Of a stretch of 29,423 nt of DNA, positions 1 through 23,062 are shown piece by piece; the stretch's first letter is position 1, and every line of letters begins with the position of its first letter. The stretch spans positions 1 through 29,423 of the forward strand of contig JANQMT010000149.1 of assembly GCA_028279945.1 (NCBI GenBank). The letters run 5' to 3'. The notes beneath the pieces are model-generated. The model saw nothing but the letters and a program-made list of their open reading frames with translations, did not search any database and was not told where the DNA came from. This DNA comes from Clostridia bacterium. Its GTDB lineage: Bacteria > Bacillota > Clostridia > Peptostreptococcales > JAAYPU01. The translations under genes were made by a program, and so were the position numbers.

Positions 1-902
1 CACCGTTGATGTCGGCACAAATTGGTGTAGGCAATACGAAATTGGTCATGTATTCTAATTTAACTGGCAACATAATCAATGTAGTATTGAACTATGTGTT
101 GATATTTGGTAAATTTGGATTTCCTAGAATGGAGATGGCAGGCGCAGGTTTAGCTACGGTCATCGGTAATGTGGTCATATTTTTATTGTTGTTAAAATCA
201 GTTATTCGTGGCAAAAATGGCATCAATATTTTAAAGGGCAGTTGGAAATTTAAAAAAGGTGTCATGAAACCACTATTAAATATTGGCAGCAGTTCCTTGA
301 TGGAACACAGCTGGGAAAGGATTGGTCTGTTCATCTTTGCCAGACTCATTGCTGAACTTGGCACAGTTGCCATGGGGATACACCATTTTTGTATTCTTAT
401 TTGGGATCTGTACTATTACTTTGGCATGGGCATGGGCACAGCAAGTGCATCCTTCTCCGGTAGGAAGATAGGTGAAGGACGTAAAGATCTGGCCATTATT
501 TACACAAAGGTAGCCCAGCGTTCAGGATTGATTATTTCTATGATTGCCAGTGTCATATTTATATGGGTGCGTGAACCGGTTTTTGATTTTTTTGTCTCTG
601 ATTCTGAAGGCATTCGACTGGGAGTTGCAGTTATGGGTATTGTGGCGATGTTAATTATTCCACAAACCTATGCTCAAGTTTCTTCTGGGACTTTACGTGG
701 TGCAGGTGACAATCGATTTATAGCGGTTTATTTTTTGGCTGTCAGTGCTATACTACGGCCTTTGAGTGCGTATGTTTTTGCTCTTAGCTTAGGTTTAGGT
801 TTACCTGGAATGTGGTTGGCATTATTGCTAGATGAGAGTTTGAAAATGGTTCTTACTCGATATCGTATTAAAAAAGGAATTTGGTTGAAGATTGAATTTT
901 GA
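1..902 (+). CDS. MATE-family multidrug/oligosaccharidyl-lipid efflux transporter, C-terminal ~2/3 (5' end lies outside window)
   Basis: Open frame from window edge. Polytopic hydrophobic protein with MATE-like motif LRGAGDNRF and repeated TM helices. The ORF-track ATG at 6 is probably internal. Confidence 0.7.
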   Translation, partial: PLMSAQIGVGNTKLVMYSNLTGNIINVVLNYVLIFGKFGFPRMEMAGAGLATVIGNVVIFLLLLKSVIRGKNGINILKGSWKFKKGVMKPLLNIGSSSLMEHSWERIGLFIFARLIAELGTVAMGIHHFCILIWDLYYYFGMGMGTASASFSGRKIGEGRKDLAIIYTKVAQRSGLIISMIASVIFIWVREPVFDFFVSDSEGIRLGVAVMGIVAMLIIPQTYAQVSSGTLRGAGDNRFIAVYFLAVSAILRPLSAYVFALSLGLGLPGMWLALLLDESLKMVLTRYRIKKGIWLKIEF

Positions 903-1035
903 TATAAAATGTTTGTAGTTCAGCATTCTCAGAGATATTTGGAAAAGATGATATTTCTTTGTCCATTGATTGTATAAATACTGTGTAATTCTGGTGACGA
1001 AATGTGGTTAGGGATTGTTGCTCGAGAGTAATTTT

Positions 1036-1073
1036 GGGGTGAAAAATTGGCTGAAAAACGCCATTTTTGCCCC
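1036..1073 (+). other. Long imperfect hairpin inside 5' block (GGGGTGAAAAATTGGC / GCCATTTTTGCCCC)
   Basis: Near-perfect inverted repeat with one bulge. The equivalent position in copy 2 (4196-4227) also folds (GGGGCAAGAAATT / AATTTTGCCTC) using a different sequence. Confidence 0.4.
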
Positions 1074-1156
1074 TTTATAATGGGTAAAGATATAGATGAC
1101 ATAGAGGATTTGGGGTATGAAAAGCAAATATTAATTGATATGTGAATGTAAAAGAC

Positions 1157-1203
1157 GAAGCTTTGGTCAGTTAATGATTTAAAAGCTTCTTCTATTTTGT
1201 TGG
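1157..1203 (+). terminator. Terminator-like hairpin GAAGCTTT-N16-AAAGCTTC followed by TCTATTTTGTTGG
   Basis: 8-bp perfect stem plus T-rich tail. Copy 2 has a hairpin at the same aligned position with a different, compensating stem (4360-4410). Confidence 0.45.
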
Positions 1204-1268
1204 AAAAATTCAAATGACATCTTGTGTTTATAATTAATTAAAAATTTGATATAATTTGTAAAAATATA

Positions 1269-1297
1269 TTGGATATAATTGGAAATGGGTGTAGAAT
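1269..1297 (+). promoter_or_regulatory. Sigma-A-like promoter: -35 TTGGAT, 17-bp spacer, -10 TAGAAT
   Basis: Both hexamers and the spacing are conserved in copy 2 (4496-4524). The promoter sits about 95 nt upstream of the 1389 start codon. Confidence 0.5.
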
Positions 1298-1388
1298 GAA
1301 TTCAGGTGTAAGTTTGCAGATATTTAATTACGATTGAGTTATTAGTGTTTTGTAAATAATAGCGTTATGCAATATTGGAGGGGATTAT

Positions 1389-2138
1389 ATGAATGGGCAA
1401 CTTCATCATTTGATACAAGTTGTGGATACTTGTAGCAAATACTTGAATGGTAAAAGTCAAAATGTGTTAGATGATAAACATTATAGCTCGTTAGTATTTA
1501 TAAAGCAGAACGAAAATACAATTATCAAAAAATTAATGGGTAAGCCTACATCTGAACTAGTGATAGCTACTAAAATTTCAGAGTTTCAGAAATACTTGGA
1601 GAATAACAAATGTAAAAAAGTGTATATTCATTTATCAGTAGAAGAGGATGATATAAATTTGTCTGCATATGCAAATGGGATTGCTGGGCAACTTATGGTA
1701 TGTGAATTCAATAATTATATTGAAATATGGAGGAATAGTTTTAATTATAATGGTGAAAAGTGGGATGTAGTTTATTATATGATAGATCGTAGCAACAAAC
1801 AGTATAAACCTGTTAAAAGAAATCTGAAGGAAGAGTATATTAAATTGATTAATTGCTATGAATCATTAGAAGAATTTGCTTTGTTAATTGAACAAAAATA
1901 TTGGGCTGAGTTTTTTGAAAAGGGTAAAAGAAACTTATTGGATATTCCTGATTTAGAACGTAATGAAATAAACAAAGTAATACAGAATATCAAGTGGCCT
2001 TTTGGGGGTATGGGTTCATGGAATGATTCACCGCCATATTCTGCTCATGAAAAAGGATTGGATGAAGATTTTAAAGTGAAAAGTAATATGTTATACAATC
2101 AATTGCATGTTGTAATTGAAGCTATACTTAATATGTAA
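1389..2138 (+). CDS. Hypothetical cytoplasmic protein (249 aa), cargo of cassette 1
   Basis: Strong RBS TTGGAGGGG 7 nt before the ATG. Clean ORF with no recognisable family motif. C-terminal WPFGGMGSWNDSPPYS stretch noted. Confidence 0.6.
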   Translation: MNGQLHHLIQVVDTCSKYLNGKSQNVLDDKHYSSLVFIKQNENTIIKKLMGKPTSELVIATKISEFQKYLENNKCKKVYIHLSVEEDDINLSAYANGIAGQLMVCEFNNYIEIWRNSFNYNGEKWDVVYYMIDRSNKQYKPVKRNLKEEYIKLINCYESLEEFALLIEQKYWAEFFEKGKRNLLDIPDLERNEINKVIQNIKWPFGGMGSWNDSPPYSAHEKGLDEDFKVKSNMLYNQLHVVIEAILNM

Positions 2139-2143
2139 GCACC

Positions 2144-2218
2144 TGAATAACGCTGCATTTACCCACATACCTCTAGGTTGAGGATTAGCCCTTGTAGGTA
2201 TTACAGGTGGGGTTTTGA
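2144..2218 (+). repeat. Conserved structured 3' element, copy 1 (paralog of 5274-5342)
   Basis: About 70% identical to 5274-5342. Outer stem CCCAC(2162-2166)/GTGGG(2207-2211) co-varies with CCAAC/GTTGG in copy 2. Inner stem CCTC/GAGG corresponds to CACAC/GTGAG in copy 2. It ends in GGGGTTTTG. Confidence 0.55.
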
Positions 2219-2326
2219 TAATTGTCGGAAACGTTATAATGGAGATATCTGATCTGGGTTGGAAAGCTAAACTTGATAGTAAGAAATAAAAATAATAAAT
2301 AATTAAGGACTGGATAGAGGTAGAAT

Positions 2327-2872
2327 ATGAAGAAGAAAATTATAGTATTAGTTATTGTCTTGTTATTTTTGAGTTGTTCATGTAGTAAGCAAACTGAAGA
2401 CATTGAAGGTAATGGAAACGAACAAATCGACTTAGAATCAGTAGAAGATGGTAAAGAAAATAATCAAGATAATGAAGTAATAATATTTGATGAAGACGGT
2501 CAATATTTAGAATTATATTTAGAGGAAAAACCATGGATGTATATCGCAAATATCAAGGATATTCCAGAATTGTCTGAAGCGAATGAGGGTGGAGCAGATT
2601 ATGATCATGAAAATGGAGTGATAAGTTTTTCAATTACAAAAGCTACTGGAACGATGACTGGAGCAGTAGATGGCCCATGGGTTTTTGCAGAAGTTGATAT
2701 TATAAAAAAACAGGTATTAAAAAAGAAATTTGGTCCTGCTCCAGAATTTGATAATCCTAAATACAAAGAGTTTAGTGGAGAAATATTAGAAATTTCGGAT
2801 ACACGATTAACAGAGATTGCAAATTATTTTTATAGGATATTTAATGATAAAAGTTTTGAATGTATTAAATAA
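2327..2872 (+). CDS. Putative secreted/lipoprotein (181 aa), acidic
   Basis: RBS GGATAGAGGTAG. N-terminus MKKKIIVLVIVLLFLSCSCS is signal-peptide-like with Cys close to the cleavage region. Confidence 0.55.
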   Translation: MKKKIIVLVIVLLFLSCSCSKQTEDIEGNGNEQIDLESVEDGKENNQDNEVIIFDEDGQYLELYLEEKPWMYIANIKDIPELSEANEGGADYDHENGVISFSITKATGTMTGAVDGPWVFAEVDIIKKQVLKKKFGPAPEFDNPKYKEFSGEILEISDTRLTEIANYFYRIFNDKSFECIK

Positions 2873-3088
2873 TGGTATGAGCAAGTTGTTGAACATAGAT
2901 ATAATATGTTTTTTAAAGAACTTAATTTGTCTAAGAGCATAGTGATTGATGATTTAGAGAAAGCTGATCATGCTTTTAACTAAGGAATTGTCAGACGAAA
3001 GTGATAAATCTATAGTATCTAAAATTATCAGCAGAGAGAATATAGGAGTCGAGCTTCAAGAAGTAAAAAAGCATATAATGAAGTCAAT

Positions 3089-3560
3089 TTGTCAAGCCTG
3101 ACCCCTTGCTACTTAATAAAAATGCTTAATAAAAATGTTAGAATAAAAGTTAAGGAATCAAGAGATAATTATGTTGAGAAAAAATATGAATATAAAAACT
3201 TTGTTGTTGGAACAGCGATAACGTTAACTAGTTTTTATTTAGGATGCTGCATCAATTGCATATACTGTTGTATCGGGAGTACAAGTGATTCAAGAAAATG
3301 CAGAAATTGCAAAAGATGCAGAATATTCCTATTGGGGAGCTAAAGAAGGTTACGCATATGATACGACACTCTATAATGATGATGTATTGGTGTATAATAA
3401 TTCTGAAGGATATGATAAGTATGGGAATTGGACTTGGATAGAGTCACCACGTTCTGATGCGTATAGCGTTAGCAATACTAAAAAAATAAACAAAACAATT
3501 GAGCTCTATAATGCATGTATAGTAACTTATGGATATTGTGAATTATATTCTCCAGATTAA
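3089..3560 (+). pseudogene. Small secreted-type protein gene split across three frames (two +1 shifts at T-runs); possible pseudogene or sequencing-error-affected gene
   Basis: Frame 1 reads MLRKNMNIKTLLL then stops. Frame 2 reads KNFVVGTAITLTSFYLG. Frame 0 is open from 3243 and reads DAASIAYTVVSGVQVIQENAEIAKDAEYSYWGAK through to 3560. Joined, they form a plausible signal peptide plus mature protein. The Cys-rich tail of track ORF 3089-3343 is an out-of-frame artefact. Confidence 0.35.
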
Positions 3561-3585
3561 ATTTAAGTGCTTGAAGGTGGTTTAG

Positions 3586-4077
3586 TTGGATTTATTTATA
3601 TTGCAGTCTTTTTTAATTTTAGCAGTGTGTATTCCTTTAATTGATAATATACTTCACACAGGAAAAGTGAGTTATAAGTTTAGGAGAAATATACTTTTTG
3701 CTCGCCCAATACCTTGTGCAATGATTGGATTTGAGCTGTTTGTATTTGCTAATTTATTAATAGTTGATAAAAATATTTTATATAGTGTTGATTTTGAGTT
3801 AGTAAGTACGATGATTATAACCGTAATACTTATTGTATTTACGCTCATTGAATATGCAAAAATTTCAGAAGGGGTATATTCTAATGGATTAGTCCTCAGA
3901 GGACTTTTTTATAAGTGGAAATTAATCCACTCGTATGAAGCTATTGTTACAGACAGTGGAACGGTTATCTTAGATCTTTGTTTTATTACGAAAACAAAGA
4001 CCGTGTATAGAAGGTTTAATATTCATAAAACTGATTGGAACCATATGGAAAATATATTCGAAAAAAATATTAAGTAA
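3586..4077 (+). CDS. Small integral membrane protein (163 aa, TTG start)
   Basis: RBS GAAGGTGG 5 nt upstream of the TTG. Three to four hydrophobic helices. Its 3' third (3847-3960) is duplicated at 9760-9873. Confidence 0.5.
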   Translation: MDLFILQSFLILAVCIPLIDNILHTGKVSYKFRRNILFARPIPCAMIGFELFVFANLLIVDKNILYSVDFELVSTMIITVILIVFTLIEYAKISEGVYSNGLVLRGLFYKWKLIHSYEAIVTDSGTVILDLCFITKTKTVYRRFNIHKTDWNHMENIFEKNIK

Positions 4078-4087
4078 AGTAGTATGG

Positions 4088-4133
4088 AAACTCTTTGGAT
4101 ATAAATTATACCCAAAGAGTTTTTCTTATTTCT
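4088..4133 (+). terminator. Rho-independent terminator (AAACTCTTTGG-N13-CCAAAGAGTTT then TTTTCTTATTTCT)
   Basis: Perfect 11-bp stem immediately after the 4077 stop, followed by a U-rich tract. Confidence 0.7.
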
Positions 4134-4359
4134 GTAAGCGTAAATTACTAGATGAAAGCTCCATAGGTATAAAAGCCAGTGTTTGAGAGTCTTTTGGGGC
4201 AAGAAATTGGCGTGAAAATTTTGCCTCTTTAAAATGGGTAAAAAAATAGATGACATAAAGGGATTTGGGGATGACAGGGTGGAAATAGGAATTATTTACA
4301 AATGAAGAGAAAATATTCATTTGAGTTTGAATAAAAATTCATAGATGTTGGATAAGAAA

Positions 4360-4410
4360 AGGTGAAATTTTGGTCAAATAATGACTTAATGACTTCGCCT
4401 ATTTTGTTGA
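4360..4410 (+). terminator. Terminator-like hairpin AGGTGAA-N27-TTCGCCT followed by ATTTTGTTGA
   Basis: Positional homolog of 1157-1203. The stem is kept by compensating changes, including one G-U pair. Confidence 0.4.
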
Positions 4411-4495
4411 GAGAATTAAAATTAGAAAAGGAGAATGCATTAATCATTGTCTATTTATAGTATTTGAAAAAAATGAGATGATTTGTAAAAATGTA

Positions 4496-4524
4496 TTGGA
4501 TATAATTAACTGAGGGTGTAGAAT
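4496..4524 (+). promoter_or_regulatory. Sigma-A-like promoter: -35 TTGGAT, 17 bp, -10 TAGAAT (copy 2)
   Basis: Same hexamers and spacing as 1269-1297. Confidence 0.5.
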
Positions 4525-4650
4525 AAATTAAGTTATAAGTTTGCAGCTATTCAATGATGATGGAGTTATTAGTGTTTCGCAAATAACAATGTTATATGCC
4601 ATTTATATTTTTATAATTCTCAGATTTCATTAAAATAAGAGGGTGGATTT

Positions 4651-5217
4651 GTGAAAAAGTATTTTAATAAAAGTACCATACTTATTATTTTAACTATTAT
4701 ATTTTTAGGTTTTGTATTTTACTATAGTTTTTATAATATTGAAAATAATGTAGCTCAAATTGAGGAGAGTATTATAGAATTGATTAGTTTAGAAAAAGAA
4801 AGGGTTACTTTTCAAGCGAGTATAGAAATTGATAATAAAAAGTTTGTTTTATTTACTTTTGATGATAATGCTATGGGATATTCAAAGTTTCAAAAAGGAT
4901 TAAACAATAAATATAAAATAGAAAGTGTAGGGTATGAAATCGATAAAATTGAACACAGAGCAATAGATATAAAGGATAAAAAGTATTTTATTGTGCTAGG
5001 TAGAAATAATGATATGAGAATAAAAAGTATAAAAGCTATTATAGCTGGTAATGAATATATGCTTGATATACAACAAAATGAACATAGTATATCATATAAT
5101 AATGAATACTTTATTACATATTGTGAAGTGTTAAATGAAACTGAAACTGTGTTTCCACAAAAGTTTATATTATATGATATGAACAATAACGATATTACTG
5201 AGCAAATATATAGATAA
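4651..5217 (+). CDS. Hypothetical membrane-anchored protein (188 aa, GTG start), cargo of cassette 2
   Basis: RBS AGAGGGTGG. N-terminal TM/signal anchor ILIILTIIFLGFVFYY. No similarity to the cassette-1 cargo. Confidence 0.55.
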   Translation: MKKYFNKSTILIILTIIFLGFVFYYSFYNIENNVAQIEESIIELISLEKERVTFQASIEIDNKKFVLFTFDDNAMGYSKFQKGLNNKYKIESVGYEIDKIEHRAIDIKDKKYFIVLGRNNDMRIKSIKAIIAGNEYMLDIQQNEHSISYNNEYFITYCEVLNETETVFPQKFILYDMNNNDITEQIYR

Positions 5218-5273
5218 GATCATAATTATGTTTAAAAAATGGAGTAAGCTAATAGCATTATAAATTAAACGGC

Positions 5274-5342
5274 ATATAACACTGCATTTACCAACATGCA
5301 CACAGGGTAAAGGTGAGCTACAGTAGGATTTATCGGTTGGGT
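5274..5342 (+). repeat. Conserved structured 3' element, copy 2
   Basis: See 2144-2218. Confidence 0.55.
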
Positions 5343-5443
5343 AACTTAAGTGTTGTATTCTATTCATGGCGCGCGTCGTTAAATAAGATAACAGCGCAAG
5401 GATTCCGCAGTGTGAAGCGCTGGCTGGATAAAATCAGCATTAA

Positions 5444-7745
<2,302 letters not shown>

Positions 7746-7763
<18 letters not shown>

Positions 7764-7786
7764 AAGTTGCAAACTTTTTGTCTTTT
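7746..7786 (+). terminator. Rho-independent terminator (AAAGTTTGCAAC-N9-GTTGCAAACTTT then TTGTCTTTT)
   Basis: Perfect 12-bp stem spanning the stop codon of 6753-7763, followed by a T-tract. Confidence 0.65.
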
Positions 7787-7920
7787 AAATGGCAATTTAT
7801 TCCCATATACTAAAATTGTTCTTGATTTTTATAGCAGAGATTTCTGAATGGTCTCGCGGTGCCTTTGATAAAATGAGATAAGGTATACCAGAAAGATGGA
7901 ACCCGTAGAACTGAAGTGTT

Positions 7921-7948
7921 GGAGGTTCGATTCCTCTATCGCCAAATT
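7921..7948 (+). other. tRNA 3'-end-like fragment (T-arm GGAGG-TTCGATT-CCTCT plus acceptor-like ATCGCCA)
   Basis: Canonical T-stem-loop, but no foldable D arm, anticodon arm or matching 5' acceptor strand within 100 nt upstream. Confidence 0.35.
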
Positions 7949-8010
7949 GGTGATTAGCTCAATGGTAGAGCATTCAGCTGATAGTATGGGGTTCGATTCC
8001 CCTTCAAGTG
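7948..8010 (+). tRNA. Degenerate tRNA-like element or pseudo-tRNA (canonical D-arm TAGCTCAATGGTAGAGC and T-arm GGGG-TTCGATT-CCCC, but no anticodon loop: TTCAGCTGA leaves no loop)
   Basis: D-arm and T-arm are textbook, but the anticodon stem-loop and acceptor pairing cannot be formed by hand. Needs tRNAscan-SE or ARAGORN. Confidence 0.3.
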
Positions 8011-8198
8011 TGGTTACTTGTTGCTCGAAAGAGCTCCCGACTTTTAATCGGAAAAGAAGATAAGTAAGAACTATTTTAAGAACTCTCAGCAGCAGTTTAC
8101 TGCGCTAAGTTTTAAGCTTTGCAGTGTGTGGATACCGGTCAAAATACGTATATTCTTGCTATGTATTTTACTTCTTAATTATATGGTTATACCTAAAA

Positions 8199-8243
8199 CT
8201 AAGAAAAAAATCATAGCAACAATATATTAGTTTTTTTCTTAAG
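8199..8243. promoter_or_regulatory. Inverted repeat CTAAGAAAAAAA-N21-TTTTTTTCTTAAG upstream of the SPFH gene
   Basis: 11-12-bp inverted repeat, possibly a protein-binding site. Confidence 0.25.
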
Positions 8244-8332
8244 CAACATTCCGCCTAAATCTTAGGAGAGTTTTTAAAAAGTTCATAGGACAGTAATGGT
8301 AATATTTATATAGATTTGAAAGGGTGATTTTA

Positions 8333-9439
8333 ATGAAAATTATTGTGAAAAAAGATGAAAGAGGGCTTCTTTTTAAAGATGGCAATTATATGATGTGTTT
8401 AAAGGCCGGAAAACATAGGTTAAATCCTTTTGGAAAATATAGTATCCAACTGGTTGATGTGAATGAGTCTTTTGATACAATGGGTAAGAACATCAATATC
8501 TTTTTAGACGATGAAGAACTTTTAAAAGAGTTAACTGTAATAGATGTTAAGGATAATGAACTGGCACTCCACTTTGAGGATGGGAAATATATTGATGTTT
8601 TAAAATCAGTAAAAGGTGCTTACTGGAATGTACTCAAAAAACATGATTTTCTAGTTATTGATTTAAAGGATACGAAAGTGAAAGACGATATAGATGCTTC
8701 AATTTTAAGTAATCCAAAGGTGTGTGAATATTTAAACTGCTTCAATGTTGAAAGTCATGAAAAAGGTCTATTGTATTATGATAATGTGATACAAAAAGTA
8801 TTAGATCCTGGAAAATACTTTTTCTGGAAAGGACCTACCGATGTTACCGTTAAAACTGTAGATATGAGACAGCAACAAATTGGGATGGCTGGGCAGGAAC
8901 TGATGACGGAAGATAAAATTACGCTTCGATTGAATTTTGTATGTCATTATAAAGTTACAGATCCTTTGAAAGTAGTTGAAATTAATTCCTTTCATGAACA
9001 ATTGTACATAATTTTACAGTTAATCTTGAGAGAATACATTGGATGCGTTAAGCTAGATGTTCTTTTAGCAAAGAAACAAAATATAGGAAGTTATGTTCTT
9101 GAAAGATTAAAAGAAAAGAATAGTGAATTTGGAGTAGAGTTTATTTATGCGGGGTTAAAAGATATCATATTGCCAGGTGACATAAAAGAAATTTTAAACA
9201 CCGTATTAATAGCAGAAAAGAGAGCACAAGCTAACGTTATTACAAGAAGAGAAGAAGTTGCCTCAACAAGAAGTTTGTTAAACACGGCAAAGCTAATGGA
9301 TGAAAATCAAACCTTGTATAAATTAAAAGAGCTGGAGTTTCTAGAGAAAATATGTGAAAATGTAGGAAATATTTCTATAGCAGGAGGCGGCAACTTGTTG
9401 GAACAATTAAATGATTTGCTTTCAACTAGAAAAAGCTAA
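8333..9439 (+). CDS. SPFH/band-7 (stomatin/prohibitin/flotillin/HflKC) domain protein, cytoplasmic, with an internal ~150-aa insertion
   Basis: RBS AGGGTGA 5 nt before ATG 8333. N-terminus IVKKDERGLLFKDG...QLVDV. C-terminal core LRLNFVCHYKVTDPLKVV...AGLKDIILPGDIKEILNTVLIAEKRAQANVI matches SPFH. There is no N-terminal TM segment. Confidence 0.6.
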   Translation: MKIIVKKDERGLLFKDGNYMMCLKAGKHRLNPFGKYSIQLVDVNESFDTMGKNINIFLDDEELLKELTVIDVKDNELALHFEDGKYIDVLKSVKGAYWNVLKKHDFLVIDLKDTKVKDDIDASILSNPKVCEYLNCFNVESHEKGLLYYDNVIQKVLDPGKYFFWKGPTDVTVKTVDMRQQQIGMAGQELMTEDKITLRLNFVCHYKVTDPLKVVEINSFHEQLYIILQLILREYIGCVKLDVLLAKKQNIGSYVLERLKEKNSEFGVEFIYAGLKDIILPGDIKEILNTVLIAEKRAQANVITRREEVASTRSLLNTAKLMDENQTLYKLKELEFLEKICENVGNISIAGGGNLLEQLNDLLSTRKS

Positions 9440-9457
9440 AAAAAGGGTAATAATACA

Positions 9458-9703
9458 GTGATAGAACTAAGGGGCAGATACAACACAGTAAAAGTATTTA
9501 CCCATAATATAGAAGAAAAGGCTGCAGAGCAAATACATGAGCTTTGCAGTCAAAAAATAGAAGCTTTAGCTTATATCTGTCCAGTTTGTTTTTGTGAAAT
9601 AGACCTTTTTATAACATGCGAAGATGAACCGAGTGATCAAAATCATGGTCTAACTTTATTGGAGGCAAAAAATAACTATATTAGATTAGGGCGCATGCTG
9701 TGA
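9458..9703 (+). CDS. Small hypothetical protein (81 aa, GTG start) with CPVC...C...C cluster
   Basis: RBS AAGGGTAA. Sits 19 nt after the SPFH gene. Confidence 0.35.
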   Translation: MIELRGRYNTVKVFTHNIEEKAAEQIHELCSQKIEALAYICPVCFCEIDLFITCEDEPSDQNHGLTLLEAKNNYIRLGRML

Positions 9704-9759
9704 AGATATGGTAAGCCGTGTAAGGCAGCCTAAAGTTGATGAATTAAATGGCTTGGAAT

Positions 9760-9873
9760 ATTGAATATGCAAAAATTTCAGAAGGGGTATATTCTAATGG
9801 AGTAGTCCTCAGAGGATTTTTATATAAGTGGAAATTAATCTACTCGTATGAAGCTATTGTTACAGACAGTGGA
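9760..9873 (+). repeat. ~114-bp direct repeat, about 95% identical to 3847-3960 (internal fragment of membrane-protein gene 3586-4077)
   Basis: Read directly from sequence, roughly 6 mismatches. The embedded ORF 9748-9975 is a remnant with no TM part, so likely a gene fragment. Confidence 0.75.
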
Positions 9874-9897
9874 GGGGAATCATCTTTTAGCGTCTTC

Positions 9898-9930
9898 AAA
9901 TGCTGTACTCGAAAAGTGAGTACAGCATTT
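9898..9930. terminator. Bidirectional intrinsic terminator: perfect 13-bp inverted repeat AAATGCTGTACTC-gaaaagt-GAGTACAGCATTT
   Basis: A-tract upstream and T-tract downstream. It lies between the convergent 9748(+) remnant and the 9962-10708(-) gene. Confidence 0.65.
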
Positions 9931-9961
9931 GATTTAATGAAATATAGAGGGGAGAATTTGA

Positions 9962-10708
9962 TTAAAAGCCACTAATGTCTTGTGCAAGTCCGATGACCAT
10001 CATTTCTGATACACATCCGCCTTTTGTCAATGCGCATGCCTGATAAACCATATCTGCGAAGTGTTCAGGACGAACTGCCATTTCCTCATCCCATTCAAAC
10101 TTACTGATGCCTTCGGCAGATTGGAAGTTAGTATTTGAGCCACCTGGTACAAGTAAGGTGACACTTATGCCATGAGGTCTAAGCTCTGTATATAGGCATT
10201 TTGTGAAAGCATTTACTGCTGCCTTTGCAGCCGAGTATACCGACCAGCCGGGCCATGAACGGCGGTCGCAAACACTGGAGACGTTAAGTATTTTACCGTA
10301 GCCTTGTGCTTTAAACTGTGGAGCAAAGGTTCTACAGCTCATGATGGTGCTTGTTAAGTTTAAATCAATGATCTTTTTGTTCATTTCATCGTCCATTTCT
10401 TCAATGGGAGCAACTCTTACTGCTCCTCCAGCATAGTTGAGTAGAAAATCAACCTTTCCAAAGTTGTCTATGCATGCCTTTAGAGCTGCTTCAAAGGTTT
10501 CGGGCTTTGTAGCATCGCCTTTGAAAGCAATAACCTTTGAACCATGTGCTTCGCAGTTCTTGACTGTGTCTGCCAATGCCTCTTCATTAATATCAAACAG
10601 CACCAGATTACATTGATCCAGCTTTGCAAACAACTCAGCGGTTGCTTTTGAAAAGCCTGAAGCAGCTCCCGATAAAACAGCAACCTTCCCTTTAAAAGAT
10701 TCACCCAT
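9962..10708 (-). CDS. SDR-family NAD(P)-dependent oxidoreductase
   Basis: N-terminus KGKVAVLSGAASGFSK (Rossmann fold), YxxxK present. RBS AAGGAGGG. Confidence 0.85.
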   Translation of the reverse strand: MGESFKGKVAVLSGAASGFSKATAELFAKLDQCNLVLFDINEEALADTVKNCEAHGSKVIAFKGDATKPETFEAALKACIDNFGKVDFLLNYAGGAVRVAPIEEMDDEMNKKIIDLNLTSTIMSCRTFAPQFKAQGYGKILNVSSVCDRRSWPGWSVYSAAKAAVNAFTKCLYTELRPHGISVTLLVPGGSNTNFQSAEGISKFEWDEEMAVRPEHFADMVYQACALTKGGCVSEMMVIGLAQDISGF

Positions 10709-10837
10709 GAATAACCCTCCTTACCAATTATAGTAAATAATTGATCTTTTGAGATTATACTAACATATTCCATGACAAAGGTCAACAGCTCGTTTTTTAT
10801 CTTTGACATTTTTTATGAAAAAGTTCAATTGTTGAGA

Positions 10838-10866
10838 TTGACAAATGTCATAAATTAATTTAGAAT
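10838..10866 (+). promoter_or_regulatory. Promoter (-35 TTGACA, 17 bp, -10 TAGAAT) overlapped by palindrome TGACAAATGTCA (10839-10850)
   Basis: Perfect 12-bp palindrome, one of three copies in the window. A degenerate second half-site TTGACATTTT lies at about 10802. Confidence 0.55.
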
Positions 10867-10916
10867 TTAATTGAACAAATGTTTTGAAAAATGTTAATGA
10901 AGGCGAGGTCGGTGAT

Positions 10917-11699
10917 ATGTTAGTTAATTTGAATGGTAAGGTCTGTGTTGTTACAGGTGCAGCTAGAAGTATAGGTCTGGGTATTGCAGAGAAGTATTGC
11001 GAAGACGGAGCTAAGGTAGCAATGATCGACATTAATCCTGAGGTTGTATATGAGGCGGATAGAATTTCTAATGAATATAAGGCAGATGTAAAAGGCTATG
11101 TATTAAATATTACTAATAGAGAAGAGGTACTCAAATGTTTTGATAAGATTGTTGAAGAGCTTGGTCCTATATTTGCCTTGGTTAACAATGCAGGAATTGT
11201 AGATCAACGTTCCTTTGAGGAAATCACCGAAGATATGATTAACAAACAGATGGCAGTAAATGTGAATGGAACGCTTTTCTGTACCCAAGGTGCAGTAAAA
11301 AGTATGAAGGATCAGAACGAAGGCAGAATTATAAATTTTTCATCCAAATCAGGTAAAACAGGGTCAGCCCTAATGGCCCATTATTCTGCAGCAAAGGGAG
11401 CAATTATTGCCCTTACACATGCCCTTGCATTTGAATTGGCTTCCGATAATATTCAAGTGAATTGCATCTGCCCCGGTATAACTGATGCTACGGGTGTTTG
11501 GAATCAAGTAAGTTCAGGATATACAAAAAACCTAAACTTGTCTCGAGAAGAGGTCATAAAGCAATTTACAGCAAAAATTCCAATGAAGAGACTAACAAAT
11601 ATTGAAGATATTGTTGAGATGGTTTACTTCCTTACTCTAAAGGGAGATTATATGACCGGTCAAGCATATAACATTACAGGAGGAAGGGAGGTGCACTAA
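10917..11699 (+). CDS. SDR oxidoreductase, sorbitol-6-phosphate 2-dehydrogenase (SrlD)-like
   Basis: GKVCVVTGAARSIGLG, GRIINFSSKSGKTGS...YSAAK and C-terminal TGQAYNITGG resemble SrlD. Probable start is ATG 10917 rather than TTG 10884. Confidence 0.8.
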   Translation: MLVNLNGKVCVVTGAARSIGLGIAEKYCEDGAKVAMIDINPEVVYEADRISNEYKADVKGYVLNITNREEVLKCFDKIVEELGPIFALVNNAGIVDQRSFEEITEDMINKQMAVNVNGTLFCTQGAVKSMKDQNEGRIINFSSKSGKTGSALMAHYSAAKGAIIALTHALAFELASDNIQVNCICPGITDATGVWNQVSSGYTKNLNLSREEVIKQFTAKIPMKRLTNIEDIVEMVYFLTLKGDYMTGQAYNITGGREVH

Positions 11700-12746
11700 A
11701 TGAGTCATATGATAGGGAAGTGTGTGAAATATTATGCCCCAATGGATGTTCGAATTGAGCCGTTGATGGAAATACCTCAGATTTGTGATGGAGAAGTTTT
11801 GATAAAAATCGAAGCCTGTGCCATCTGTGGAACGGATATAAAATCCTTTGTCAATGGCAATCCCAGAATCATGCCTCCAAAGGTAATGGGGCATGAGCTT
11901 TGTGGAAAGATTGTGGCAATGGGCAGTGGCGTTGATAACTATAAAATAGGTCAGAGGGTAACGATGGCTACTACCATAGGCTGCGGCAAATGCGACTACT
12001 GCAAAAGTGGAAAGACAAATCTTTGTAGAAGTGCAGAGGCAATGGGCTTTCATTACCCCGGGGCGATGGCACCTTATGTGGTTATACCGGAAAAGGCGGT
12101 AAGACAAAAACATTTGGTGGATGTGGGAGATCTGGATGTCGTTATTGCAAGTCTAAGCGAGCCCCTATCCTGTGCTATGAATAATATAAGTCGTGTACCA
12201 GATGAAGCACTGGGAAGTGTACTTGTTATTGGCCTTGGGCCACTTGGAATGCTGCATGCTGTTTCCTTAAGGGAAAAAGGAGTCAAAAACATAGTGTGCG
12301 TAGCAAGACCGGGTAAAAGAGCGGATATGGCAAAGCAATTGGGCTTTGATATAGTGCTTTCGCCTCATGAGATAGATGAAAAATATAAGGAGCTTACAAA
12401 TGGCGAAGGATTTGATTTGATTATCATAACAGCTCCCAGCAACGAGATGCAAGGGAAGGTACCAATGTATGCTAAGAAAGGAGGGTACGTATCCTATTTT
12501 GCCAGTCTCCCTGTTGGAGATGAAATGCTGACAATGAACAGTAGGATTATCCATTATAATGAATTGGTGCTTTACGGTACTTCGGATTCTACAGTACAGC
12601 ACGTGAAAGCAGCAGTTCACCTTTTAAGAAAAAATCCGGAAGCCTTCAAGCCTTTGATTACACACGTTATGCCATTTGAAGATTTTCATAAAGCTATGGA
12701 TGAGATAAAGTTGAGAAATGCCGTTAAAATAGTACTTGTTCCATGA
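11700..12746 (+). CDS. Zn-dependent medium-chain alcohol/polyol(-phosphate) dehydrogenase
   Basis: CAICGTDIK, GHE, CGKCDYCKSG structural-zinc motif, GLGPLG NAD site. The start abuts the upstream stop. Confidence 0.85.
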   Translation: MSHMIGKCVKYYAPMDVRIEPLMEIPQICDGEVLIKIEACAICGTDIKSFVNGNPRIMPPKVMGHELCGKIVAMGSGVDNYKIGQRVTMATTIGCGKCDYCKSGKTNLCRSAEAMGFHYPGAMAPYVVIPEKAVRQKHLVDVGDLDVVIASLSEPLSCAMNNISRVPDEALGSVLVIGLGPLGMLHAVSLREKGVKNIVCVARPGKRADMAKQLGFDIVLSPHEIDEKYKELTNGEGFDLIIITAPSNEMQGKVPMYAKKGGYVSYFASLPVGDEMLTMNSRIIHYNELVLYGTSDSTVQHVKAAVHLLRKNPEAFKPLITHVMPFEDFHKAMDEIKLRNAVKIVLVP

Positions 12747-12941
12747 TACTATGGGTAGTGTAAAGTAAACTATAAATTACTGGCGACTGACGCCACCTTT
12801 GACAGTATAGAAAAACAATGCTCTGTAGTTTTTACCGATAGCGAAGAACTCAAGAACAGGTAGAGAAATCGACTTCAGACTATAGCACTTTAACATTGTT
12901 TTTCTGTACCATCAAGAGTAAATACGAGGGGGAATAAGTAA

Positions 12942-14003
12942 ATGAAACTTGTAGGTATAGGTGATTTGTTCATACCAAAGGAATACATTGAGAAGGGCTT
13001 TCAATCCTATTGGGAAATGAATGTTGAGGTTGAAACCGTTGAATGGATGCTTGCAGATTTTAATGAGCTTCAAAAAATTAATTTAATGGTGGAAAAAGGA
13101 GGCTGTGAGGCTTATGAGCCGCCTCAATATATTTTCGATGCCTGTGAGGATGCAGATATTATTATCACCCAGTTTTGCACCATTACAAAAAAATTGATGG
13201 ATCATTGCAAACACCTAAAGATCATCGGCGTTTTAAGAGCAGGTATAGAAAATGTTAATCTTGCATATGCAAGTGAGAAAAATATACTCGTCTACCATAC
13301 ACCGGGGAGAAATGCAGATGCAGTTGCTGATTTTACGATAGGTTTATTGCTTTCAGAATGCAGAAATATTGCCAGAGGCCATATGGGATTGAAAAATGGA
13401 AAATGGATTAGAGAATATCCCAATTCCTTTTATATTCCGGATCTTCCAGGGAAAACGGTGGGTATCGTAGGCCTTGGAGAGATAGGTCAAAAGGTTGCCA
13501 AGCGGCTTGTTGGCTTTGATGTAAAGCTATTGGGCTATGATCCCTATGTTTCAAATCCTCTCTATGGAATAAAGATGTGTTCTCTTGAAGAACTGATGGC
13601 AAAATCGGATTTTGTTACTGTTCACGTCAGACATACATCGGATACCGAGAATCTGATAAATCGAAAGTTAATCTCTAGAATGAAACCTACCGCCTATCTT
13701 ATCAATACTTCACGATCGGTCATAGTTGATGAAGATGCTCTTTTTGAAGCTTTAAGAGACAAAAAAATAGCAGGTGCCGGCTTAGATGTATTTAATGTTG
13801 AGCCGCCCACCAAAGATTATCCCATTGTTGCAATTGATAATGCAACCGTGACACCTCATATGGCAGGGGGCTCCAAGGATGCGTTTTTGAATTCACCTAA
13901 GAAGCTGGCGGAAGGGCTAAAGGGTTATTGGAGCAAAGATGAGTCAAGGTATCTGGTAAACAAGGGCTTGCTTGGAAAAATGACGGCTACAACGAAAAGA
14001 TAA
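12942..14003 (+). CDS. D-isomer-specific 2-hydroxyacid dehydrogenase family protein
   Basis: GIVGLGEIGQKVAKRL NAD-binding motif and a catalytic His region. RBS GAGGGGGA. Confidence 0.8.
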   Translation: MKLVGIGDLFIPKEYIEKGFQSYWEMNVEVETVEWMLADFNELQKINLMVEKGGCEAYEPPQYIFDACEDADIIITQFCTITKKLMDHCKHLKIIGVLRAGIENVNLAYASEKNILVYHTPGRNADAVADFTIGLLLSECRNIARGHMGLKNGKWIREYPNSFYIPDLPGKTVGIVGLGEIGQKVAKRLVGFDVKLLGYDPYVSNPLYGIKMCSLEELMAKSDFVTVHVRHTSDTENLINRKLISRMKPTAYLINTSRSVIVDEDALFEALRDKKIAGAGLDVFNVEPPTKDYPIVAIDNATVTPHMAGGSKDAFLNSPKKLAEGLKGYWSKDESRYLVNKGLLGKMTATTKR

Positions 14004-14019
14004 TTGGAGGTAAGGGGCT

Positions 14020-14316
14020 ATGTATGCAGCAAAAATTATAGGTACAGTAGTATGTACCCGAAAGGATGAAAAATTAAGTGGCAGGACGTTACAGGTGGTA
14101 CAGCCCGTTAGTCTCTTGACACTGGAATATGAAGGTAAACCTTCTGTAGCCATTGATTCCGTCGGGGCAGGAATGAATGAAATCGTTCTGGTTGTAGGAG
14201 GAAGTTCTGCAAGGCAGACAACAGTTACATCCAATACACCTGTGGATGCCACAATCATGGCCATTGTAGACCTGATTGATATAGATGGCCAAAAGGTATT
14301 CGATAAAGGTCAATAA
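14020..14316 (+). CDS. BMC vertex (pentamer, BMC-P) protein, EutN/PduN/CcmL family, copy 1
   Basis: MYAAKIIGTVVCTRKDEKL start is typical of EutN/CcmL. RBS GGAGGTAAGGGG. Confidence 0.85.
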   Translation: MYAAKIIGTVVCTRKDEKLSGRTLQVVQPVSLLTLEYEGKPSVAIDSVGAGMNEIVLVVGGSSARQTTVTSNTPVDATIMAIVDLIDIDGQKVFDKGQ

Positions 14317-14333
14317 TCTAAATTGTAGGGGGA

Positions 14334-14609
14334 ATGTCCATGTTTCTAGCTAAAATTATTGGAACAGTTGTTGCAACCCAAAAGGATGAATCATTGAGAA
14401 GTGTAAAGCTGCTGGTAATACAGCCCATTGATTCCTTTGGAAAAGAAGCAGGTTCTCCTGAGGTAGCTGTGGACACCATTGGCGCAGGCTATGGAGAAAT
14501 CGTATTTTGTGCAAAAAGCAAGGAAGGGGCTATGCCCTTACCTGACCCTAATGCGCCGGTGGATGCAGGAATTATTGGAATTGTTGATTGCATCTATAAT
14601 AATCGTTAA
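14334..14609 (+). CDS. BMC-P vertex protein, copy 2
   Basis: LAKIIGTVVATQKDESL, paralog of the previous gene. Confidence 0.85.
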   Translation: MSMFLAKIIGTVVATQKDESLRSVKLLVIQPIDSFGKEAGSPEVAVDTIGAGYGEIVFCAKSKEGAMPLPDPNAPVDAGIIGIVDCIYNNR

Positions 14610-14622
14610 AGGATGATTTGCC

Positions 14623-14919
14623 ATGATATTTGCTCGAGTAGTTGGAAATATGGTTGCAACCCAAAAAAATGAAAATCTGAGAGGTTCAAAATTAATGATT
14701 CTTCAACCTTTGGACACAAAAGGGAAAAGTGTCGGAAAACAGATCATAGCAGTGGACGCAGTAGGAGCGGGAATAGGAGATATAGTCATCGCCATTGCTG
14801 AAGGGGGTTCGGCAAGGCAGGTGTATAAGGCAAAACCCATGGCACCCATTGATACAATTATTGCGGGGATTGTTGACATCATTGAGACAGAAGATGGAAG
14901 CATAAGCTTATATGATTAA
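14623..14919 (+). CDS. BMC-P vertex protein, copy 3
   Basis: IFARVVGNMVATQKNENLRGSKL, a third tandem paralog. Confidence 0.85.
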   Translation: MIFARVVGNMVATQKNENLRGSKLMILQPLDTKGKSVGKQIIAVDAVGAGIGDIVIAIAEGGSARQVYKAKPMAPIDTIIAGIVDIIETEDGSISLYD

Positions 14920-14933
14920 AATGAGGTGAAAAA

Positions 14934-15794
14934 ATGGAAATGAATAAGTTGATTGAGGCCATTACCCAAGAGGTATTAAAAGAACTGGGTGAAGACGACC
15001 TTTTTAAAGTCGGCGGTATCTCCATCTCAAAGGAGGTGCTACCCAACGGTGTTGATATAAACAATCTGGCGAAGACAGTAGACCACACTGTTTTAAAGCC
15101 AGACACGACTAGGAACACTATAGAAAAATTTTGCAAAGAAGCAGCGGAATGGAGGTTTGCATCCGTCTGTGTGAATCCAACCCATGTAAAGCTGGCTGCA
15201 AGCCTTTTAAAGGAGACTGATGTAAAGGTATGCACCGTAATAGGTTTTCCTTTGGGAGCTAACACACCCTTTGTGAAAGCAATGGAAGCAAGGGATGCAA
15301 TAGCCAATGGTGCACAGGAGGTTGATATGGTGATTAACATAGGCGCCTTGAAGGATGGTGAATATGATCTTGTTTCAAAGGACATAAAGGCTGTCGTGGA
15401 TGCAGCGGCCGGTCAGGCGCTGGTAAAAGTGATTATCGAGACCTGCCTGTTGACAGAGCAAGAGAAGATAAAAGCCAGTTTATTGGCTAAAAATGCAGGA
15501 GCAGATTTTGTAAAGACTTCTACCGGAATGAGCACCGGAGGTGCTACGGTGGAAGATATCGCTCTTATGAGAAAAACAGTAGGCCCCCAAATGGGTGTTA
15601 AAGCTTCCACAGGAGTAAATAATCGTGAAATCGCACTGAACCTGATAAGAGCAGGAGCGACAAGGCTGGGTACTAGCAAGGGTATCATCATTCAAACCGG
15701 ACAAAGCCCTGAACAACCAAGCTGTGTAAACTGCGGCAACTGCAAATCAGGCTGTCCTACAGGAAATGCACATGTTGTGAAAGACAACTATTAA
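14934..15794 (+). CDS. deoC: Deoxyribose-phosphate aldolase (DERA) with N-terminal amphipathic helix and C-terminal CxxCxxCxxxCP tail
   Basis: [10 protein letters not shown] and MGVKASTG (the two catalytic Lys regions), TVIGFPLG. N-terminal [15 protein letters not shown]-terminal [12 protein letters not shown]. Confidence 0.85.
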
Positions 15795-15798
15795 AATA

Positions 15799-17292
15799 AT
15801 GTCAGCTGAAATAGGGGATGTGAATAATATGGTTGTCAATGAAATTGATCCGGTGAAAAGGTCCGTAAGAGAAGCCAATAAACTGATGGATGAAGCTTAT
15901 GAAGCTCAGAAACTGATAGCTGACTATGACCAGCAGAGAATCGATAGAATTGTTGCGGCAATGGTCCATGCAGGCTATGAGAATGTAAGGAAATTGGCTT
16001 ATATGGCCGTTGAGGAATCCAAAATAGGTGTTGCAGAAGACAAGGTGATTAAAAATGTGTTTGCAACAAAAAATATTTATGAATATATCAAGGATATGAA
16101 AACTGCTGAAATCATTAGTGAGGACAGAGAACAAGGGATAATAGAGATTGCAGCTCCTATGGGTGTCGTAGTAGGATTGATTCCCACTACTAATCCTACC
16201 TCAACCGTAATGTATAAGGCAATCATATCAATAAAATCAAGAAATGCCATCGTTTTATCCCCTCATCCAAGATCGGTGAGATGCTGTATGGAAGCTGCAA
16301 GGATTATGGAAGAGGCTGCTATTGCAGCCGGAGCGCCAAAGGGAATCATCAGATGCATGTCCATATGCTCTAAGGATGCAACCGACACACTGATGCACCA
16401 TCCAAAGGCAGCGGTCATATTGGCTACAGGCGGTAGTGCTATGGTTAAGGCAGCATACAGCTCAGGTACACCAGCATATGGAGTGGGACCGGGAAATGTT
16501 CCGGCTTTTATAGAACGGTCTGCAAATATATCTGATGCCGTCAGCAAAATATTTAAAAGCAAAACCTTCGATAATGGTACCATCTGTGCTTCGGAGCAGG
16601 CTATCGTAACAGAGGCTGTTATTGCTGAAAAAGTAAAGGCTGAGGTAATAAAAAGAGGCGGATATTTTGTTGTTGGTTCAGACATGGAAGCTCTGGACAA
16701 AACCATCATACTTCAAGATGGAGGGGTTAATCCGAAGGTAGTAGGTCAATCCCCCACAGCCATAGCTAAATTGGCAGGGATTGAAATACCTGAGGGAACA
16801 AAAATTATCTGTGTAGAGCTAAAGGGAGTAGGAAAGAAATACCCTCTTTCGGCAGAAAAGCTTTGTCCTGTATTGGCGTTCTATGTTATAGACGATTGGG
16901 AAGCTGGCTGTGAGCGGTGCATTGAACTGCTGAATTATGGTGGTCTAGGGCATACTATGGTGATACATTCACACAACGATGCAATCATAAGGGAGTTTGG
17001 ACTGAAGAAACCGGTTTTTAGAATCTTGGTAAATACGCCTTCCTCTCAAGGGGCTATAGGATATACCACCGGTCTCGCACCGGCTCTGACCCTAGGCTGC
17101 GGCACATGGGGAGGCAGTATCACCTCAGACAATGTTTCGCCCTTGCACTTGATAAACAGAAAGCGGATCGCATATCATCAACCTGCAAGTGAAGAGAAGG
17201 CAAAGTCTAAAGGTACTAGATATGTATATACATTGACTGAAATAAATAAGGCTATAGATAATTATAATAAAGGAGGCTATTGGAATGAGTGA
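15799..17292 (+). CDS. CoA-acylating aldehyde dehydrogenase (PduP/EutE family)
   Basis: [10 protein letters not shown] catalytic Cys, [23 protein letters not shown]. The alternative start ATG 15829 is possible. Confidence 0.85.
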
Positions 17293-17596
17293 AACAATAG
17301 GCATGATAGAAACAAAAGGCTTGGTAGGAGCAATAGAAGCTGCCGATGCAATGGTAAAAGCGGCAAATGTTCAATTGATGGGAAAGGAAATCGTGGGCGG
17401 TGGATTTGTAATGGTAATCGTAAAAGGAGATGTGGGAGCAGTTAAGGCTGCCACAGATGCAGGTGCTGAAGCAGCCGGAAGAGTAGGCGAACTGAAGTCC
17501 GTTCATGTGATACCACGCCCGCATAATGAGGTTGCAGTGATACTTCCCAAATACGAGACTGTTAAGGCCGGACCAAAAACAAAAGCAACGACTTAA
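17285..17596 (+). CDS. BMC hexamer shell protein (BMC-H, PduA/EutM family), copy 1
   Basis: [25 protein letters not shown]...GDVGAVKAA...HVIPRPH. Confidence 0.9.
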
Positions 17597-17637
17597 TATG
17601 GATAGCCACGTAGTTGAAAGATAGGAGGTAAAATATA

Positions 17638-17907
17638 ATGAGTGAAGCAATTGGAATGATTGAAACCAAAGGCTTGGTTGGAGCCATAGAGGCAGCAGAT
17701 ACTATGGTTAAGGCTGCCGGTGTCAAACTAATAGGTAAGGAATGTGTTGGAAGTGCTTTGGTAACGGTTATGGTAAGAGGAGACGTAGGAGCGGTTAAAG
17801 CTGCTACCGATGCAGGTGCAGCAGCGGTACAAAGCGTTGGAGAGTTGAAATCCGTTCATGTGATTCCAAGGCCTCATGCTGAGGTAGAATCCATATTACC
17901 AAAGTAG
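17638..17907 (+). CDS. BMC-H shell protein, copy 2
   Basis: Same signature. RBS GGAGG. Confidence 0.9.
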
Positions 17908-17944
17908 TATTATGTTTGAATAGATGAATTAGGAGGGTTTTAAT

Positions 17945-22946: not shown

Positions 22947-23062
22947 GGGAGGCATGTTGCCCAGCCCATGGCTTTATCTCAGAAAAGAGCCGTGACAAAA
23001 TTTATGAAATATTCCAAACATTATATTGACATATGTTATGGATTTAGTTATAATTAAGAAAA

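Follow-up and report, generated by a model that had tools for sequence, protein, structure and literature searches.

Two copies of a non-coding block with terminator-like hairpins and a putative promoter ahead of two operons in an AT-rich island of a Clostridia bacterium

The window analysed here is the whole stretch of 29,423 nucleotides (nt) from contig JANQMT010000149.1 of a Clostridia bacterium (assembly GCA_028279945.1), an organism known from metagenome assemblies only. It contains an island with a GC content of about 30% (1000–9900), compared with about 40% in the flanks. The island is bordered by a MatE transporter gene, which ends at position 902, and by an SDR gene on the − strand (9962–10708), beyond which a microcompartment and sugar operon with about 40% GC is located. 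Two gene units were found on the + strand of the island. Unit 1 (1389–4077) begins at 1389 with the gene of an orphan protein of 249 amino acids (aa), followed by a lipoprotein gene, small open reading frames (ORFs) and a gene encoding a DUF5673 membrane protein. Unit 2 (4651–9703) begins at 4651 with the gene of a 188-aa membrane orphan and also encodes a helix-turn-helix (HTH) protein, two WYL/WCX-domain proteins, an SPFH protein and a CPCC protein. The unit-1 proteins show no relationship to those of unit 2. The subject of this work is a non-coding block that occurs twice in the island, in equal orientation, each time just ahead of the gene that opens an operon. Block A (1019–1368, + strand) lies between the end of the MatE gene and the start of the 249-aa gene and heads unit 1, and block B (4180–4595, + strand) lies after the DUF5673 gene and its terminator, ahead of the 188-aa gene, and heads unit 2. 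Each copy carries, in order, two hairpins designated (a) and (b), a promoter-like site (c) and a leader with a small hairpin (d).

Block A was delimited by blastn against block B, by MAFFT alignment and by the lack of coding signal, and block B by blastn and MAFFT alignment. The similarity of the two copies was detected by blastn with an E-value of 2.5e-38, which is far beyond chance, and the MAFFT alignment gave 76% identity over 343 ungapped columns. Relative to A, block B has 53 additional nt (after ~4276), a further 20 nt (~4423–4442) and a leader longer by about 35 nt. Identities of consecutive segments across the block were 80%, 68% and 81%, and the insertions and deletions (indels) clustered in the middle segment; the idea that this unevenness was a sign of constraint was dropped, as the permutation test was non-significant. 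A sensitive blastn search of both strands revealed no third copy in the window, which leaves two copies in 29 kb. Mismatches between A and B were equally distributed among the three codon phases and no coding signal was found in any frame of either block, all six frames containing stops or being broken by indels. On these grounds a gene, a hidden ORF and a recent pseudogene were rejected. A small peptide beginning with MGKDIDDI was also rejected, having no Shine–Dalgarno sequence and a frame that is shifted and then restored between the copies. A stretch at 1065–1108, likewise devoid of coding signal, was 86% identical between the copies. Neither terminal inverted repeats between the block ends nor flanking direct repeats or a target-site duplication were found.

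Hairpin (a) of copy A (1036–1073, + strand) consists of a 10-bp lower stem and a 4-bp apical stem followed by UUUAUAAU, with a folding energy of −18.2 kcal/mol (z −3.5 relative to shuffled sequences), and its counterpart in copy B (4196–4227, + strand) of a 9-bp stem followed by UUUAAAAU (−10.6 kcal/mol, z −1.7). On the − strand the hairpin was weaker in both A (−14.9 kcal/mol) and B (−4.6 kcal/mol). Four substitutions separate the two versions, all of them one-sided and all retaining the pairing through G-U, on the + strand only. The U-tract after the stem is weak, with a length of 3, and the hairpin of copy A is possibly a weak terminator or a 3'-end stabiliser of MatE transcripts. Hairpin (b) with its tail occupies 1153–1203 in copy A (hairpin 1153–1193) and 4360–4410 in copy B (hairpin 4360–4400), both on the + strand. 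In A it comprises 17 pairs with one mismatch and one bulge (−14.6 kcal/mol, z −3.0), and the copy in B folded with −13.1 kcal/mol (z −2.4). The U-rich tail, which directly follows the last pair, is identical in both copies (TATTTTGTTG / UAUUUUGUUG / CTATTTTGTTG). As an A-rich tract lies 5' of (b), the complementary strand also forms a hairpin with a U-rich tail, with −10.5 kcal/mol (z −3.5) in A and −8.9 kcal/mol in B. In stem (b), too, pairing survives both one-sided substitutions through G-U, on the + strand only. Judged by its sequence, (b) looks like a candidate intrinsic terminator, possibly a bidirectional one.

Both (a) and (b) were more stable than shuffles in each copy. Conserved structure was found at three places only when the block was scanned by RNAalifold in sliding windows with column shuffling: at (a), with z-scores of −4.1 to −5.4 on the + strand only, at (b), with −2.9 on the + strand and −5.0 on the − strand, and at an alternative hairpin (a'). 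When 1025–1210 was compared with 4186–4417 by RNAalifold, (a) and (b) were recovered and otherwise only a short stem of five A-U pairs formed from the U-tract of (b). Hairpin (a'), built on the 3' arm of (a), was detected at 1063–1091 (alifold z −2.1 to −2.4); in it the 3' arm of (a) can pair with GGGUAAA at 1082–1091, with a minimum free energy (MFE) of −9.6 kcal/mol (z −2.6) in A and −5.9 kcal/mol (z −2.3) in B. No other terminator-like site was listed by a simple terminator scan between the MatE stop (902) and 1389, and (a) and (b) are therefore the sole candidates to end MatE transcription.

The promoter-like site (c) of copy A (1269–1297, + strand) is composed of TTGGAT (1269–1274), a 17-nt spacer and TAGAAT (1292–1297), with a predicted transcription start at ~1304. 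The same TTGGAT-17-TAGAAT arrangement was found in copy B (4496–4524, + strand), where the start is predicted at ~4531. No base of the hexamers or their flanks differs between the copies, as opposed to six consecutive bases of the spacer. A consensus scan scored the site 9/12, reading it as TGGATA-16-TAGAAT. Unit 2 sits behind a strong terminator (4086–4124) and therefore needs its own promoter within 4125–4650. Inspection by eye alone gave no convincing match to alternative sigma or operator motifs (sigma-H, sigma-54, CodY, Spo0A, Cheo box). Ending in the −35 region, positions 1235–1282 of block A form two tandem 24-nt units that are 75% identical (TAATTAAAAATTTGATATAATTTG / TAAAAATATATTGGATATAATTGG), with a weaker counterpart in copy B; these units could be iterated binding sites or mere AT-rich chance.

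The 5' untranslated region (UTR) predicted for copy A (1304–1388, + strand) is about 85 nt long, carries the ribosome-binding site (RBS) GGAGGGG at 1377–1383 and is about 81% identical to that of B up to position 1368, and the one predicted for copy B (4531–4650, + strand) is about 120 nt long with its RBS at 4637–4646. Hairpin (d), at 1338–1360 in A and 4565–4587 in B (+ strand), has an A/U stem of 6–7 bp, formed by GTTATT with AATAAT in A and with AATAAC in B. Its folding energy was at the level of shuffles in both copies (−3.6 kcal/mol, z +0.34 in A; −6.9 kcal/mol, z −1.67 in B). No conserved structure was found in the region 1206–1376 covering promoter and leader, where all alifold windows with column shuffling gave z-scores between −0.4 and +0.9, and the leaders folded alone gave +0.49 and −0.77. 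A search against Rfam revealed no match at gathering score in the whole window, and none inside either block at E ≤ 10 when 900–4700 was searched.

A sequence-only reading of the window had proposed that the block is an organised unit made of these four elements, and all four are present in both copies at the places it gave, with the TTGGAT-17-TAGAAT promoter intact and identically spaced. The layout it drew was found in both copies as far as terminator-like hairpins, promoter, leader and the first gene of the operon are concerned, whereas the structure it assigned to the leader was not. Hairpin (d) could not be upheld as a conserved structure, its MFE being that of shuffled sequences. The suggested riboregulatory leader found no support either, given the level of (d) and the lack of conserved structure in 1206–1376 and of any Rfam match at E ≤ 10. 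The notion of insulated transcription units is a reasonable reading, as a strong canonical terminator closes each unit: that of unit 1 (4086–4124, + strand; −17.6 kcal/mol, z −4.0, with a U-rich tail) is not part of the repeat but directly precedes block B, and that of unit 2 (9896–9932, + strand) has −24.5 kcal/mol and z −6.1.

The same reading had argued that the stem of (b) was kept by different sequences and that such compensatory changes indicate selection on RNA structure. In register, the basal segment of the stem is AGACGAA/TTCTTCT in A, with six of seven positions paired, and AGGTGAA/TTCGCCT in B, and the middle segment is GCTTT/AAAGC in A and ATTTT/AATGA in B. The arms that had been set against each other, GAAGCTTT/AAAGCTTC from A and AGGTGAA/TTCGCCT from B, turned out to be non-homologous columns, taken from the middle and the basal part of one 17-pair stem. 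Ten of the 17 pairs in register were invariant, two had changed on both sides (A-U to G-C and C-G to U-A), two on one side, and three included an unpaired cell in one copy; no pair of stem (a) had changed on both sides. The covariation score observed for (b) in the two divergent copies was reached in 134 of 500 shuffles, so the argument from compensatory changes has no statistical support. Compensatory changes noticed by eye in two copies may thus stem from the comparison of non-homologous stem segments, and two sequences carry no statistical weight for covariation. Retention of the hairpins was also compared with a neutral null, in which one copy received random mutations that matched the observed substitutions in number and type, and the stability of the resulting hairpin was compared with that of the real other copy. 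For (b) this gave P values of 0.03–0.06 on the + strand and 0.11–0.17 on the − strand, and for (a) about 0.11 on the + strand and 0.2–0.4 on the − strand. Fisher combination of the (a) and (b) retention tests gave P of about 0.03, which is suggestive and not proof.

A second metagenome-assembled genome of a Clostridia bacterium, GCA_022360735.1, was found through a cluster look-up and was about 98% identical to the window in the shared parts; two of its contigs were compared with 1–17475 of the window. One of them, JAKSCF010000610.1 (L013), carries the MatE gene, block A and a unit 1 in shortened form that retains the 249-aa gene and the DUF5673 gene with its terminator, and the contig ends within block B, at window position 4434. 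Its unit 1 has neither the segment corresponding to 2572–2739, an in-frame deletion of 56 codons in the lipoprotein gene, nor that corresponding to 2866–3556. Block A of this strain differs by three single-nucleotide polymorphisms (SNPs), none in a hairpin or a hexamer of (c). One of them changes a TATAAT that overlaps the −35 element (1274–1279) to TATGAT and leaves both (c) hexamers untouched, which argues against 1274–1279 being the −10. The 5' half of block B contains eight SNPs and one 5-nt deletion in 255 nt; by this deletion the apical stem of (b) is lost, and the basal stem and tail are kept (−10.5 kcal/mol). The other contig, JAKSCF010000700.1 (L014), matches the window only from 9682 on, its first 660 nt, which hold part of a different gene, being absent from the window. 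Left of 9682, the place of the CPCC gene is taken by another gene in the second strain, and no close relative of the unit-2 proteins was found from GCA_022360735.1. Judged by these two results, the cargo behind block B differs between the two close strains, and the cargo of the island is strain-variable.

Part of the DUF5673 gene forms a separate repeat: an internal stretch of 114 nt (3847–3960) is found again, with 96% identity, at 9760–9873, just before the unit-2 terminator, with no similarity flanking it on either side, and metagenome contigs break at this repeat. The fragment at 9760–9873 looks like a recombination scar or a gene remnant.

Relatives of the block were sought beyond these two strains. 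Scans of GTDB genomes, JGI metagenomes and viral contigs with patterns of 19–20 bases, which divergent relatives could escape, yielded hits that were judged by reading each and proved to be chance matches only, and blastn in its 'distant' setting gave no match in plasmid and phage records to the block or to 8 kb of the island. For the 249-aa protein the nearest relative had 45% identity, and the block was not present at the loci of such relatives (L008, L010). The 188-aa and DUF5673 proteins matched only themselves. Logan contigs 100% identical to the window were found. On this sequence sampling the block family appears confined to one lineage so far.

The explanation we favour, at a probability of about 0.5, is that the block is a duplicated intergenic control region, made up of two terminator-like hairpins, one of them weak and the other good, a promoter of the sigma-A type and an unstructured UTR, that heads two operons of an unstable accessory island. 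Ordinary terminator hairpins with a promoter are the most likely content of the block, rather than a new regulatory RNA. The block would be present twice through an old duplication or recombination inside the AT-rich accessory island. Transcripts arriving from upstream would first reach hairpin (a), acting as a weak terminator or a 3'-end stabiliser, and next the long interrupted stem of (b) with its UAUUUUGUUG tail, which would serve as an intrinsic terminator and whose A-tract on the 5' side could stop antisense transcripts too. About 75–95 nt past (b), transcription would be restarted by the TTGGAT-17-TAGAAT promoter, giving 5' UTRs of 85–120 nt, alike in sequence and not in structure, ahead of each operon (1389–4077 and 4651–9703), and each operon would be closed by its own strong terminator. 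We infer from the sequence that termination and initiation occur at the predicted sites, and the common promoter and UTR sequence may mean that the two operons are co-regulated, the WYL-domain regulators of unit 2 being one candidate regulator.

Several results weigh against this explanation. Promoter-like hexamer pairs were not above chance, with 66 found versus 52.1 ± 6.7 in shuffles of 10 kb, so that what argues for (c) is solely its conservation and its position, and the −35 element TTGGAT matches TTGACA at only three of six positions. The simple terminator scan listed neither (a) nor (b); both have interrupted stems, and that of (b), which is bulged, is capped by a loop of 5 nt. In copy B both hairpins sit behind an already strong terminator and are redundant as insulators. 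Their retention was only marginally above random mutation (P 0.03–0.06 for (b) and about 0.11 for (a)), and the pattern of matches and mismatches between the copies fitted uniform neutral divergence in permutation (variance P 0.25–0.40; longest identical run 15, P 0.78). Finally, comparison with the second strain shows evolution in the 5' half of block B to be no slower than around it, with eight SNPs and one indel in 255 nt as against 2.4% locally.

Some of these results would be expected if the block were a neutral relic of an old segmental duplication, alike in its two copies by descent, with hairpins and leader lacking any selected function beyond at most one usable promoter. Such a relic would show a match/mismatch pattern indistinguishable from a uniform 76% identity, retention tests non-significant singly, a covariation score matched by 134 of 500 shuffles and a 5' half of block B no slower-evolving than its flanks, all of which were observed, and it would fit an island scarred by recombination, as seen from the DUF5673 fragment at 9760–9873 and from the deletions and cargo replacement in the second strain. 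We nevertheless consider it rather unlikely, since position and orientation directly ahead of an operon are kept in both copies, all six one-sided stem substitutions are wobble-compatible on the coding strand, the combined retention P is about 0.03 (Fisher), and the segment identities (80%, 68%, 81%) fall in the middle, where most indels lie. A more dynamic origin would make the block, or its halves, an exchange junction of a cassette island or an interspersed repeat, that is, a boundary between cargo units that serves as a recombination substrate, or a non-autonomous mobile repeat with an outward promoter. Each of the two unrelated cargo units does begin with a block, both blocks, B as its 5' half, occur in the 98%-identical strain, which differs left of 9682 and in which none of the unit-2 proteins was found, the contig of this strain loses similarity at about 4434–4437, between (b) and the promoter, and the GC content of about 30% sets the island apart from its flanks at about 40%. 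The end of that contig may, however, be an assembly break rather than a junction. Neither terminal inverted repeats nor flanking direct repeats accompany the block, no recombinase or transposase was found among the scanned window proteins (all island ORFs and a selection of ORFs outside), and no copy was seen elsewhere, the GTDB, JGI and viral scans giving chance matches and the blastn search no plasmid or phage match. A junction or mobile repeat is thus decidedly doubtful.

Readings in which the block itself acts as RNA fared worse. A trans-acting small RNA (sRNA) of 115–215 nt could end at (b) and begin near (a) or at the TATAAT/TAAAAT that closely follows it (1076–1081 in A, 4230–4235 in B), with the unstructured, about 85% identical stretch 1078–1122 as its seed. 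The order of a 5' hairpin, an unstructured segment and a terminator hairpin suits such a gene, the segment 1065–1108 is 86% identical and non-coding, (b) of copy B has no obvious transcript to stop, as 4086–4124 already ends the upstream operon, and TTGGCG-17-TAAAAT in copy B scores 9/12. Yet the promoter spacing is not conserved, the copy-A counterpart of that −35 lying 23 nt from TATAAT, no Rfam match was obtained, two second-strain SNPs fall within the supposed seed of copy B, and a 53-nt insertion interrupts the body of that copy. No significant complementarity to the downstream leaders was detected (RNAduplex z −1.2 and +0.9), and base pairing of the sRNA with the leaders was rejected. 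An sRNA gene is accordingly regarded as very unlikely. Even less credible is a riboswitch or attenuator formed by the block or by the stretch after the promoter, in which the switch would be the mutually exclusive pair (a)/(a') (1063–1091) or hairpin (d). The alternative pairing of the 3' arm of (a) with 1082–1091 (MFE −9.6 kcal/mol in A and −5.9 kcal/mol in B; alifold z −2.1 to −2.4) speaks for it. The predicted leader, though, has no conserved structure, (d) is at shuffle level, no Rfam family was matched even at E ≤ 10, the terminator-like (b) precedes the best promoter, at a distance of 190–240 nt from the start codon, and the downstream genes are unrelated orphans with no common ligand logic.

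The duplicated control region could have a wider role in a lineage-specific island of the accessory or defence type, as a conserved 'head' carried by each exchangeable cargo unit and providing insulation, a shared, co-regulated promoter/operator, possibly read by the WYL proteins of unit 2, and homology for the swapping of cargo between strains. The hint comes from the second strain, in which block A and the 5' half of B are retained with other cargo at the right end of the island, and this role is given little credence here. If the favoured explanation is true, the block is routine punctuation of gene expression, copied once in a small orphan-gene island of an uncultured Clostridia bacterium, which aids the annotation of two operons and little more. 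Greater weight would follow only if more copies revealed a dedicated cassette-head or recombination module, or if the (a)–(b) part proved to be a new small RNA, neither of which is supported at present.

Other features of the window were recorded alongside. In unit 2, an HTH-like ORF (5462–6199) is followed by the WYL/WCX-domain ORFs 6302–6766 and 6753–7763, which overlap by 14 nt, and the ORFs of 5462–7763 may represent a split or duplicated regulator of the WYL type. Inside the 560-nt gap after them (7764–8323), between the WYL/WCX genes and the SPFH gene, the Rfam E-value scan returned a full-length match to YrlA (Y RNA-like, RF02553) at 7898–7998 on the + strand, with E 1.3e-7 and 41 bits, below the gathering score of 69. 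Two tRNA T-arm-like GGTTCGATTCC motifs occur at this site, at which no tRNA was called by ARAGORN, and no Ro/Rsr gene was noticed among the scanned ORFs. A literature search that combined YrlA and WYL led to papers on the Salmonella rtc operon and to no others. Outside the island, a box beginning with TTGACAAATGTCAT occurs four times (10838–10865, 21774–21801, 23026–23053 and 23063–23090) ahead of sugar and microcompartment genes; the TTGACAAATGTCAT box at 10838 gives TTGACA-17-TAGAAT, and the box is probably a shared promoter or operator. Three tandem paralogous units of about 270 nt, 71–74% identical, were found at 17284–18213 and correspond to the ORFs 17285–17596, 17638–17907 and 17945–18217. 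They adjoin three EutN/CcmL genes (14020–14919) and genes for an aldolase and an aldehyde dehydrogenase. As the second-strain product at the matching position is labelled PF00936 (BMC), the tandem ORFs are probably microcompartment shell genes.

Compared with intrinsic terminators, (b) has the stable stem-loop with an adjoining U-rich tract and the A-rich 5' side seen in bidirectional ones, and (a) has a GC-based stem followed by UUU. They depart from such terminators in that (b) has 17 pairs with a mismatch and a bulge and is missed by a consensus scan, its copy in B stands behind a stronger terminator, and the U-tract of (a) is only 3 nt long. Site (c) resembles sigma-70/sigma-A promoters in its 17-bp spacing, its −10 TAGAAT (5/6), the A/T-rich sequence upstream and its place 85–120 nt before an RBS and start codon, and differs from them in a −35 matching at 3/6 only, in having no extended −10 and in that such matches occur here at chance frequency.

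BOX, RUP, ERIC/IRU, REP/BIME and MITEs are interspersed intergenic repeats of bacteria. The block, too, is non-coding, hundreds of bases long, capable of forming stem-loops and repeated in intergenic regions; unlike them, it has only two copies, no terminal inverted repeat or target duplication and a single orientation ahead of operons, and no copy of it was found in other genomes. The morons of prophages and similar elements are self-contained accessory transcription units with a promoter upstream and a terminator downstream. The island differs from them in that it has neither phage genes nor similarity to any phage or plasmid record, and morons are not known to share a homologous head sequence of 350 nt. 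Like morons, however, the units of the island have their own promoter region and a strong terminator at the end, the island is AT-rich relative to the flanks, and its cargo varies between close strains.

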